This document shows, one piece after another, positions 30,103 to 34,393 of a stretch of 64,000 nt of DNA (its first letter is position 1; each line of letters begins with the position of its first letter). Below the pieces are notes generated by a model. It was given only the letters and a program-made list of their open reading frames with translations. It was not told the origin of the DNA and did no database searches. The DNA lies in contig CAZLEV010000006.1 of assembly GCA_964558645.1 (NCBI GenBank), forward strand, positions 64,001 to 128,000, in the 5' to 3' direction. The DNA comes from an uncultured archaeon (GTDB lineage: Archaea > Asgardarchaeota > Thorarchaeia > Thorarchaeales > Thorarchaeaceae). The translations under genes were made by a program, and so were the position numbers.

Positions 30103-30180
30103 TGGTGCCCCGGCCGGGATTTGAACCCGGGTCGTCGGATCGAAAGTCCGAGATGCTGGGCCGAGCTACACTACCGGGGC
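30103..30180 (-). tRNA. tRNA-Glu(UUC), intronless, encoded CCA
   Basis: Reverse complement GCCCCGG...TCGGA CT TTC GA TCCGA...CCGGG TTCAAAT CCCGG CCGGGGC A CCA folds into a full cloverleaf. Confidence 0.96.
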
Positions 30181-30900: not shown

Positions 30901-30977
30901 GGGCCCATAGCTCAGCTTGGTAGAGCGGCAGGCTCATAACCTGTCGGTCAAGGGTTCAAATCCCTTTGGGCCCACCA
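30901..30977 (+). tRNA. tRNA with CAU anticodon, most likely tRNA-Ile2 (agmatidine-modified), encoded CCA
   Basis: GGGCCCA TA GCTC AGCTTGGTA GAGC G GCAGG CT CAT AA CCTGT CGGTC AAGGG TTCAAAT CCCTT TGGGCCC A CCA. The GGGCCC acceptor stem is typical of archaeal Ile tRNAs, and there is no A1-U72 initiator pair. Confidence 0.9.
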
Positions 30978-33064: not shown

Positions 33065-33184
33065 GTTCAGTCCTCAGTTTCGTTTCGTACTCTGTGTACA
33101 AACACCTATATCAGCTGTTTGGATTTTCAACGACCAATTGGAGTTGGGCTCTCAGAGTTGTGACCGAATGTTTGTATCAAGATA

Positions 33185-33197
33185 GCAATCTTAATAT
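33185..33197 (+). promoter_or_regulatory. BRE/TATA promoter of tRNA-Asn
   Basis: GCAATCTTAATAT about 30 nt upstream of 33227; matches the other tRNA promoters. Confidence 0.6.
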
Positions 33198-33226
33198 TGA
33201 ATCCGTGGCCGTTCTCCGTTGCACTT

Positions 33227-33422
33227 GCCGCCGTGGCTCAGTCGGTAGTTGTTGTTCCTCTTGAGGAGCAGCAGCTGAAAGCGACAACCCTTTGCACTTC
33301 GCAAGGGTTCGCTCAAGCCTGTTACCTTTCGGTCAGGTGGCCGAGAGCCAGACAGTTGTAGTGCATCACGCTTCGTGATGCGTGACGTATGGTCCCAGGT
33401 TCAAACCCTGGCGGCGGCGCCA
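33227..33422 (+). tRNA. tRNA-Asn(GUU) with four introns; exons 33227-33248, 33280-33285, 33316-33324, 33354-33359, 33390-33422
   Basis: Joined exons give GCCGCCG TG GCTC AGTCGGTA GAGC G ACAGC CT GTT AA GTTGT TGGTC CCAGG TTCAAAC CCTGG CGGCGGC G CCA: 76 nt, all four stems paired, G73 as in Asn tRNAs. Each removed segment is a hairpin with BHB/BHL-like geometry. Confidence 0.9.
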
Positions 33423-33607
33423 CGTACATCAGTTCTTTTCAGTCCAATCGGTCTGCATCAGTATCCTGCAATCATGCACAAAGAAAGTGAGCCCACCATT
33501 CCCCTTCAGGGGATCGGCTGAAAGGGCCATCCAAGCGTGTTCTGGTACAGTAGAAGTGTTCCGTGAAGTACGAGGACCAGAACGATAACAGAGAGGAAGA
33601 TGTCAAG

Positions 33608-34198
33608 CTAGGGCCGTTCCTTGACGGGTGAGGGGCGGAGGAATCCGGTTCTCTGCATATACTCCGCATACTTCTCATTCTGAGTCCTGAGCAGATACTG
33701 CTCCTCCGCCACGGCAAGAAGGACATATGCAAGCAGCTCGGCATACCAGACAGAGATGGTCACTCCGCCGCTCCAGTAGCTCTTCGCATAAGGTAGTGTG
33801 CCGATCCATATACTTCGTGTTGTGAGTGTCAGGGTGAACAAGAGCACACCGAGATACTGTGGATGACGCACGAACCTGTATGGCCCCATCCTCACAAGAC
33901 CGAGTTCTCTATTCGTCCTGAGATAGGCAATGGAATAGGTCCAGAGAGAGAATCCAAACAGTGCCAAGATGACCTCAAGAAGAAATCCACCTAAGATGAG
34001 ATATATCAAGAAGAACGGGAGCGCGAGCAGTCCAACTGGAGCGGTGGTGGCAATGCCGACCAGAAAGACTAGGAAGGGCATGACCATGAGCCCAGCGTAG
34101 CCGAAGGGTATCGACTGAAAGAGAGGGACTATGTATCCCGTGCCGTCTAGGAATCTCTTCGGGATTCTCTGCCTTAGAGTTGGAGAAGTGTCTTCCAT
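33608..34198 (-). CDS. ICMT/PEMT-family membrane methyltransferase
   Basis: LVRMGPYRFVRHPQYLG and EEQYL..Y.EY motifs; multi-TM. Confidence 0.82.
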   Translation of the reverse strand: MEDTSPTLRQRIPKRFLDGTGYIVPLFQSIPFGYAGLMVMPFLVFLVGIATTAPVGLLALPFFLIYLILGGFLLEVILALFGFSLWTYSIAYLRTNRELGLVRMGPYRFVRHPQYLGVLLFTLTLTTRSIWIGTLPYAKSYWSGGVTISVWYAELLAYVLLAVAEEQYLLRTQNEKYAEYMQRTGFLRPSPVKERP

Positions 34199-34393
34199 TC
34201 AGTCATCATCCCCATTCCTATCTTCACTGAGGAATAGATGCAGAGCCATTTAACCATATAGTGCAGTACTGTGTGGATGCAAGAGGTGTTTGGAACACGT
34301 GTTCCAATTTCATTAGGCAATGTGGTGTTCGGACTATGTTGACACCCCAATGTCCAAAAGGGCCTCTTCAATATAGTTTACTGAGAGATACCT

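Follow-up and report, generated by a model that had tools for sequence, protein, structure and literature searches.

A four-intron tRNA-Asn(GUU) gene in Thorarchaeia and the variable intron content of its orthologues

We report a tRNA-Asn(GUU) gene of a Thorarchaeia genome that is interrupted by four short introns. It lies in the window, a stretch of 64,000 nucleotides from one contig. Judged from its sequence and that of its relatives, the gene appears to be a functional single-copy gene whose introns would be spliced by EndA and RtcB, a reading to which we give a probability of about 0.96. With this gene the known multi-intron pattern reaches Thorarchaeia. It also accounts for the way in which tRNA-Asn can seem absent from such genomes after annotation by ARAGORN or Rfam. 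As for the family, we lean slightly towards regarding tRNA-Asn as a six-site intron switchboard, with five-intron orthologues, 6-nt packing, an intron copied 7 nt along the gene, and turnover so high that alleles have probably been exchanged between lineages.

Gene architecture and spliced product

When the four inserts are removed, exons of 22, 6, 9, 6 and 33 nt join to a product of 76 nt, which ARAGORN calls as tRNA-Asn(gtt). The cloverleaf that ARAGORN draws for this 76-mer has the GUU anticodon, the invariant bases, G73 and CCA. ARAGORN missed the raw 196-nt gene whether or not its intron option was used, and so did Rfam. A BHB-scoring profile aligner, run over the whole assembly with no boundaries supplied, placed four introns in the tRNA-Asn gene, and the boundaries that it set were exact in two cases and within one base in the other two. 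The precursor also folds far more stably than its shuffles (z -6.3), and none of 200 shuffles was as stable. The features are collected in Table 1.

Table 1. Features of the tRNA-Asn(GUU) gene in the window and related loci in other genomes.
Feature	Position or locus	Strand	Description	Basis
tRNA-Asn(GUU) gene	33227..33422	+	196 nt, CCA encoded	ARAGORN on spliced form, spliced aligner, orthologues
Exon 1	33227..33248	+	tRNA 1-22, 22 nt	ARAGORN, orthologues
Intron I1	33249..33279	+	31 nt, site 22/23; central helix of 4 pairs (two G.U), exon-side helix of 2 bp	exact-junction absence in G002
Exon 2	33280..33285	+	tRNA 23-28, 6 nt; I1 3' bulge and exon helix; also I2 central helix and two bulge bases	sequence
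Intron I2	33286..33315	+	30 nt, site 28/29; 4 Watson-Crick central pairs, no exon-side helix (HBh')	orthologues
Exon 3	33316..33324	+	tRNA 29-37, 9 nt; holds the GTT anticodon	ARAGORN, orthologues
Intron I3	33325..33353	+	29 nt, canonical site 37/38; 3 central pairs and conserved U35xC mismatch	orthologues
Exon 4	33354..33359	+	tRNA 38-43, 6 nt; I3 bulge and exon helix; also I4 central helix	sequence
Intron I4	33360..33389	+	30 nt, site 43/44; 3 central pairs, no exon-side helix	orthologues
Exon 5	33390..33422	+	tRNA 44-76, 33 nt; T-arm, G73, CCA	ARAGORN, orthologues
Promoter-like archaeal element (putative)	33184..33198	+	purine-rich box, then TATA-like TTAATATT at 33191-33198; ~30 nt 5' of the tRNA	motif kept in orthologues
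T-rich tract	33433..33439	+	possible archaeal terminator	sequence
Five-intron tRNA-Asn gene	L112 (G036:C16, ~187300-187530)		228 nt	
Five-intron tRNA-Asn gene	L098 (G078:C153)		227 nt	
Five-intron tRNA-Asn gene	L109 (G031:C3)		221 nt	
5' tRNA-Asn fragments (11 relatives)	L045, L046, L047, L048, L053, L056, L057, L058, L059, L067, L068, L071, L072			

The boundaries are best seen in relatives. The same four introns are found in an independent assembly of the same genus (G001), and in a further genome of that genus (G002) only I1 is absent, with an exact junction. The intron-free orthologues of G035, G013, G105 and G087 run uninterrupted over all four junctions. These exact presence/absence junctions thus fix the four boundaries without any folding model. 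The G035 gene, a near-twin of the spliced product with one extra D-loop base and two differing T-loop bases, scores 70.1 bits on RF00005. The preliminary description had placed introns of 31, 30, 29 and 30 nt at sites 22/23, 28/29, 37/38 and 43/44, had derived the 76-nt tRNA-Asn(GUU) and had proposed a comparison of orthologous loci for intron presence or absence; its coordinates, lengths, sites and product are all borne out. It had also advised a search for other tRNA-Asn genes. Neither a second Asn gene nor a fragment was found in the assembly by ARAGORN, the spliced aligner or blastn; the assembly is 92.8% complete with 6.3% contamination, so a second gene may conceivably lie outside it.

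The imperfect motifs and some contamination of the bin are what a pseudogene, a hairpin-repeat insertion or a misassembly might look like. However, the identical architecture in the independent assembly G001, the exact presence/absence junctions, the synteny, the lack of another Asn gene in the assembly and the conservation of exons beside covarying intron stems make any of these very improbable. A split (trans-spliced) or permuted tRNA is ruled out, with the five exons colinear within 196 nt. Self-splicing introns of group I or group II are likewise ruled out, as the inserts are single hairpins of 29-31 nt without an Rfam match.

The promoter-like motif is present 5' of nearly all orthologues. 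A scan with bacterial promoter and terminator models gave no match, as expected for an archaeal host.

The enzymes required for splicing are encoded in the genome. There are two EndA genes in the Thorarchaeia assembly. The 190-aa protein is nearest to A. pernix EndA alpha (E 1e-42) and carries all three catalytic residues (Tyr, His and Lys), with a further Lys that aligns with K44 in the loop of that crenarchaeal enzyme, while the second subunit, of 229 aa, is without the catalytic His. By sequence, the pair is assigned to the (alpha-beta)2 type with loop L1. An Asgard (alpha-beta)2 EndA with loop L1 has been tied to relaxed motifs (PMC5829648). A gene for the RtcB ligase is also present. Together with the orthologues, these enzyme genes support the earlier call of a functional four-intron tRNA-Asn with BHB motifs and an EndA in an Asgard host.

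Splice motifs and order of removal

A BHB motif had been proposed for each intron. This holds for the central helices, which have 4, 4, 3 and 3 of four pairs in I1 to I4, and for the cuts, which fall 2 nt into the bulges. It holds less well for the exon side. The exon-side helix of the strict hBHBh' form is found only in I1 (2 bp) and in I3, where it is the anticodon stem, and I2 and I4 are of the relaxed HBh' form, which archaeal BHB introns may take when the EndA has the L1 loop. Pairing was scored across the family with the introns anchored on their splice sites, and the control was the same register slid by 1-3 bases. In register, 77-100% of cells are paired in the central helix and 62-98% in the intron stem, compared with 0-61% and 2-68% in the slid registers. 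Several pair types occur per intron-stem position across the family, and the central helix of I2 is paired in 98% of cells. The U35xC mismatch of I3 recurs throughout the family, in 35 of 41 distinct 37/38 introns. It persists although one base change would restore pairing, and it may matter for order or modification.

The 6-nt exons do double duty. Bases 23-25 serve I1 in its bulge and exon helix and I2 in its central helix, and bases 38-41 are shared in the same manner between I3 and I4. Because of this sharing, the strict forms of adjacent motifs are mutually exclusive, and the introns are therefore probably removed stepwise. Six bases is the minimum exon that can supply four helix bases and two bulge bases. 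The exons between introns in the family series measure 6, 9, 6, 7 and 9 nt, and none among the 63 orthologues is shorter than 6 nt. A Thermofilum tRNA-Pro has introns at 37/38 and 43/44 and hence a 6-nt exon, so we do not claim 6-nt exons as new.

We suggest the following path. One precursor would be transcribed from the single-copy gene, and each intron hairpin end would pair with the four exon bases at -6 to -3 of its 5' splice site, so that a BHB of strict or relaxed form arises. The EndA of the genome would then cut both bulges and RtcB would rejoin the exons. The introns would leave one at a time, with each 6-nt exon serving the upstream exon-side helix and the downstream central helix.

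The order of removal was approached by folding. The minimum-energy fold is never a perfect BHB at any of the four motifs, and the cost of forming one is 3-9 kcal/mol each, depending on the intermediate. In the full precursor the constrained folds cost 5.7 kcal/mol for I2, 5.9 for I4, 7.6 for I1 and 7.5 for I3, and the cost for I2 rises to ~9 kcal/mol after I1 is removed. Since the costs of I2 and I4 are the lower ones, the model tilts a little towards excision of I2 and I4 ahead of I1 and I3, though such costs are too soft to set the order. The folding energies of the 15 intermediates give no clear order. Some orthologues have I2 and no I1, and others have I1 and no I2; thus, neither intron depends on the other.

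Orthologue series and intron turnover

Pattern searches over 86 family genomes, followed by an exon-anchored parse, gave 63 tRNA-Asn genes from 16 genera, all of which splice to an Asn tRNA of 76-77 nt according to ARAGORN. Six intron sites are used, with 22/23 occupied in 24 genes, 28/29 in 24, 37/38 in 50, 43/44 in 22, 50/51 in 10 and 58-59/60 in 36. The number of introns per gene is none in four genes, one in seven, two in 18, three in 16, four in 15 and five in three, and 21 combinations occur. The 166 family introns are 23-34 nt long, mostly 29-31 nt. The five-intron genes of G036 and G031 have the four introns described here and one at 59/60, and that of G078 has the same four and one at 50/51. 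The genes of G031 and G078 have the same neighbours as the gene in the window, and the gene of G036 adjoins an island. I1 and I2 occur together in 17 genes against 9.1 expected, an excess that fell short of significance when independent pairs were tested (median p 0.125). A metagenome scan for the gene gave four matches, all by chance and in unrelated DNA.

Intron content was mapped on a tree of RtcB for 57 genomes, from which G019, G078, G080, G090, G096 and G106 were excluded for lack of a full RtcB match. The numbers of changes needed are 16 at 22/23, 14 at 28/29, 9 at 37/38, 12 at 43/44, 6 at 50/51 and 18 at 59/60. This gives at least 75 presence/absence changes on the 57-genome single-gene tree, counts that are blind to gain versus loss. 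Sites 28/29, 37/38 and 43/44 retain some tree signal, while 22/23, 50/51 and 59/60 need no fewer changes than shuffled labels. The overall impression is of introns that are tolerated as passengers and are frequently lost, regained or exchanged.

One explanation is that intron-bearing and intron-free stretches have been swapped by DNA-level recombination, in part through mobile elements with a portion of the tRNA gene on board. We give this an even chance. Shuffled labels are at least as clustered on the tree as intron presence at 22/23, 50/51 and 59/60, and paired exon variants are scattered too, with 6 states and 15 changes in the T-stem and 4 states and 11 changes in the acceptor; however, the tree is that of one gene. 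The 50/51 and 59/60 introns never occur together (0 against 5.7 expected if independent), as would be the case for alternative 3' blocks, but this exclusion reaches only p 0.06 in a sign test on independent pairs. A constraint of the T-arm or alternative 3' alleles are possible causes.

The same explanation is also favored by copies of the promoter with a 5' tRNA-Asn fragment, which occur in 11 relatives (Table 1). Most of the fragments end at position 17-22, some are longer, and two have an intron-like insert at 22/23. Several are inverted, at a distance of 3-10 kb from the full gene, and border a region that holds unknown genes beside one for a HerA-domain ATPase. The arrangement resembles a hotspot of integration or inversion at which the promoter and 5' end of the tRNA are used, and a parallel model has been put forward for Caldiarchaeum tRNA-Thr (PMC3293823). 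Against exchange, a scan of seven island proteins revealed no recognisable integrase, several fragments are inverted and not direct repeats, and the host genome has no tRNA-Asn 5' fragment.

The fragments bear on a further proposal, the hypothesis of Randau and Soll that introns are retained as a shield against integration of mobile elements. The fragments mostly stop at 17-22, inside the longest intron-free stretch, which would agree with a shield. However, fragments also occur in genomes with 3, 4 and 5 introns (G022, G023, G065, G066, G090, G036), and introns are freely lost. We consider a shield unlikely.

A somewhat less probable explanation than recombination, which we hold tentatively, is an intron-rich ancestor whose introns were later lost precisely and more than once, with spliced or partly spliced RNA as the template. 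Introns at the same site are related across genera, with a mean identity of 0.57-0.76 at five sites compared with ~0.43-0.56 between unrelated sites. I3 is identical in G001, G002 and G027, the last of these in g12, the genus with which the host genus groups (95/89). The kinship within sites and the identical I3 in the sister genus indicate that the patchiness is mostly loss or exchange of old introns and not fresh invention. In G013 and G035 the intron-free gene stands at a locus syntenic with the four-intron gene of G027, and the upstream region is near-identical. Yet the change counts do not separate gain from loss, and RNA-templated loss would still need at least one gain by copying. Loss of this kind and DNA-level recombination are compatible and not mutually exclusive.

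That gain concerns sites 43/44 and 50/51. Introns at 50/51 share an identity of 0.66 with those at 43/44, and the 43/44 introns share 0.67 among themselves. The core identity between the two sites is 0.64 against a shuffle null of ~0.49, and none of 300 hairpin-preserving shuffles reached it. The intron end that pairs with one target site also pairs with the other. Sequence comparison thus supports one intron gain by copying within the tRNA-Asn gene between these sites. I1 to I4 show no detectable kinship with one another or with repeats in other parts of the genome. Nor are they detectably related to the other tRNA introns of the genome (p 0.27-0.96), which gives no support to a recent transposition out of a different tRNA gene.

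The orthologues are a dense character set with which RNA-templated loss could be told from DNA-level exchange. If the six-site reading is true, a single gene would allow tests of how archaeal tRNA introns arise and how they are lost so precisely, a question that has long been open. The orthologues also form a natural series, in which one 76-nt tRNA exists in 21 intron states, from zero to five introns, with overlapping splice motifs. These are ready substrates for testing ordered cutting and joining by an Asgard EndA. Asgard archaea are the lineage nearest to eukaryotes, and the eukaryotic enzyme serves mostly the single 37/38 site.

Known systems and other tRNA genes of the genome

Four introns per tRNA gene are already on record, only in a table. 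Valentin-Alvarado et al. (2024, PMC11291895) reported 228 tRNA introns in three Asgard genomes, and four-intron genes appear in their Supplementary Data 4. Those of Freyarchaeia are Arg-TCT and Ile2-CAT, which both methods called, and Leu-GAG, called by R2DT; those of Atabeyarchaeia are Trp of Atabeya-2 (R2DT) and Lys-TTT (tRNAscan). The text of the paper neither mentions four introns nor analyses turnover. The supposition of the preliminary description that a four-intron tRNA in Asgard archaea may be undescribed thus does not hold. Its expectation that standard scanners would miss such genes stands for ARAGORN and Rfam and fails for tRNAscan-SE 2.0, which called four-intron genes in that table. 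The maximum stated elsewhere is three introns per archaeal tRNA, in the tRNAscan-SE 2.0 paper (PMC8450103) and in reviews. Stepwise intron removal is built into that program (PMC8450103). The Freyarchaeia and Atabeyarchaeia genes (PMC11291895) resemble ours in being from Asgard, with short introns, short exons, non-canonical sites and up to four introns per gene. They differ in that exons between introns are 7-9 nt in the four-intron rows, whereas two exons here are 6 nt, and in that their Asn-GTT has two introns, whereas in Thorarchaeia, another class, this gene has four and orthologues have up to five.

The Thermoproteales (Sugahara 2008, Fujishima 2010, reviewed in PMC4033280) share with our case the BHB and relaxed BHB motifs and an (alpha-beta)2 EndA with the L1 loop. 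Adjacent introns, of which one has to be gone before the next motif forms, and intron transposition are also known there (PMC4033280, PMC8450103). However, their transposition is between different tRNA genes, and the one supported case here is within one gene (43/44, 50/51); their stated maximum is three introns and here there are four. The tRNA-Thr of Caldiarchaeum subterraneum (Sugahara et al. 2012, PMC3293823) likewise shows presence and absence of introns in close relatives and a 5' tRNA fragment beside inserted DNA, but in one population and with two introns, whereas tRNA-Asn has six sites over 16 genera. In Cyanidioschyzon merolae (Soma et al. 2013, PMC3728597) stepwise removal, with the 37/38 intron last, was seen by RT-PCR, while here it is deduced from the motifs; that organism is a eukaryote with at most three introns, whose motifs are able to fold independently. 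The literature searched, mostly outside subscription journals, held nothing relevant on five-intron archaeal tRNA genes or on Thorarchaeia tRNA introns. The five-intron orthologues, the at least 75 changes on the tree and the kinship of 43/44 and 50/51 introns were not found in print.

Introns are common in the tRNA genes of this genome, with 21 of the 34 catalogued genes bearing them and tRNA-Asn alone having four. The genes for tRNA-Trp and a CAU tRNA (G000:C10:36207-36372, G000:C20:7643-7807) have anticodon-loop inserts of 57-60 nt; each insert contains two hairpins and may consist of nested or tandem introns. The tRNA-Phe gene and several other isoacceptors were not found in the G000 assembly by ARAGORN or the spliced aligner, and these may be unassembled or more heavily interrupted. 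ARAGORN called a tRNA-Sec at G000:C4:168976-169066 and two tRNA-Cys ~10 kb apart at C3:111608 and C3:121449. The window also holds intron-free genes for tRNA-Glu(UUC) (30103-30180, minus strand) and tRNA-Met(CAU) (30901-30977, plus strand), and the tRNA-Met of relatives has an intron at 22/23 or 43/44.

The genes that flank tRNA-Asn encode an LRR protein, an ICMT-like protein and a ZIP transporter and have no evident link to the tRNA. In the region 33423-34200 of the window, the gap between the tRNA and the ICMT-like gene is 0.2 kb, against ~1.4 and 2.5 kb in the same-genus loci L118 and L119. The ICMT-like protein is 54-57% identical to the same-genus copies, compared with 78-97% for its neighbours, which marks a variable spot 3' of the tRNA.
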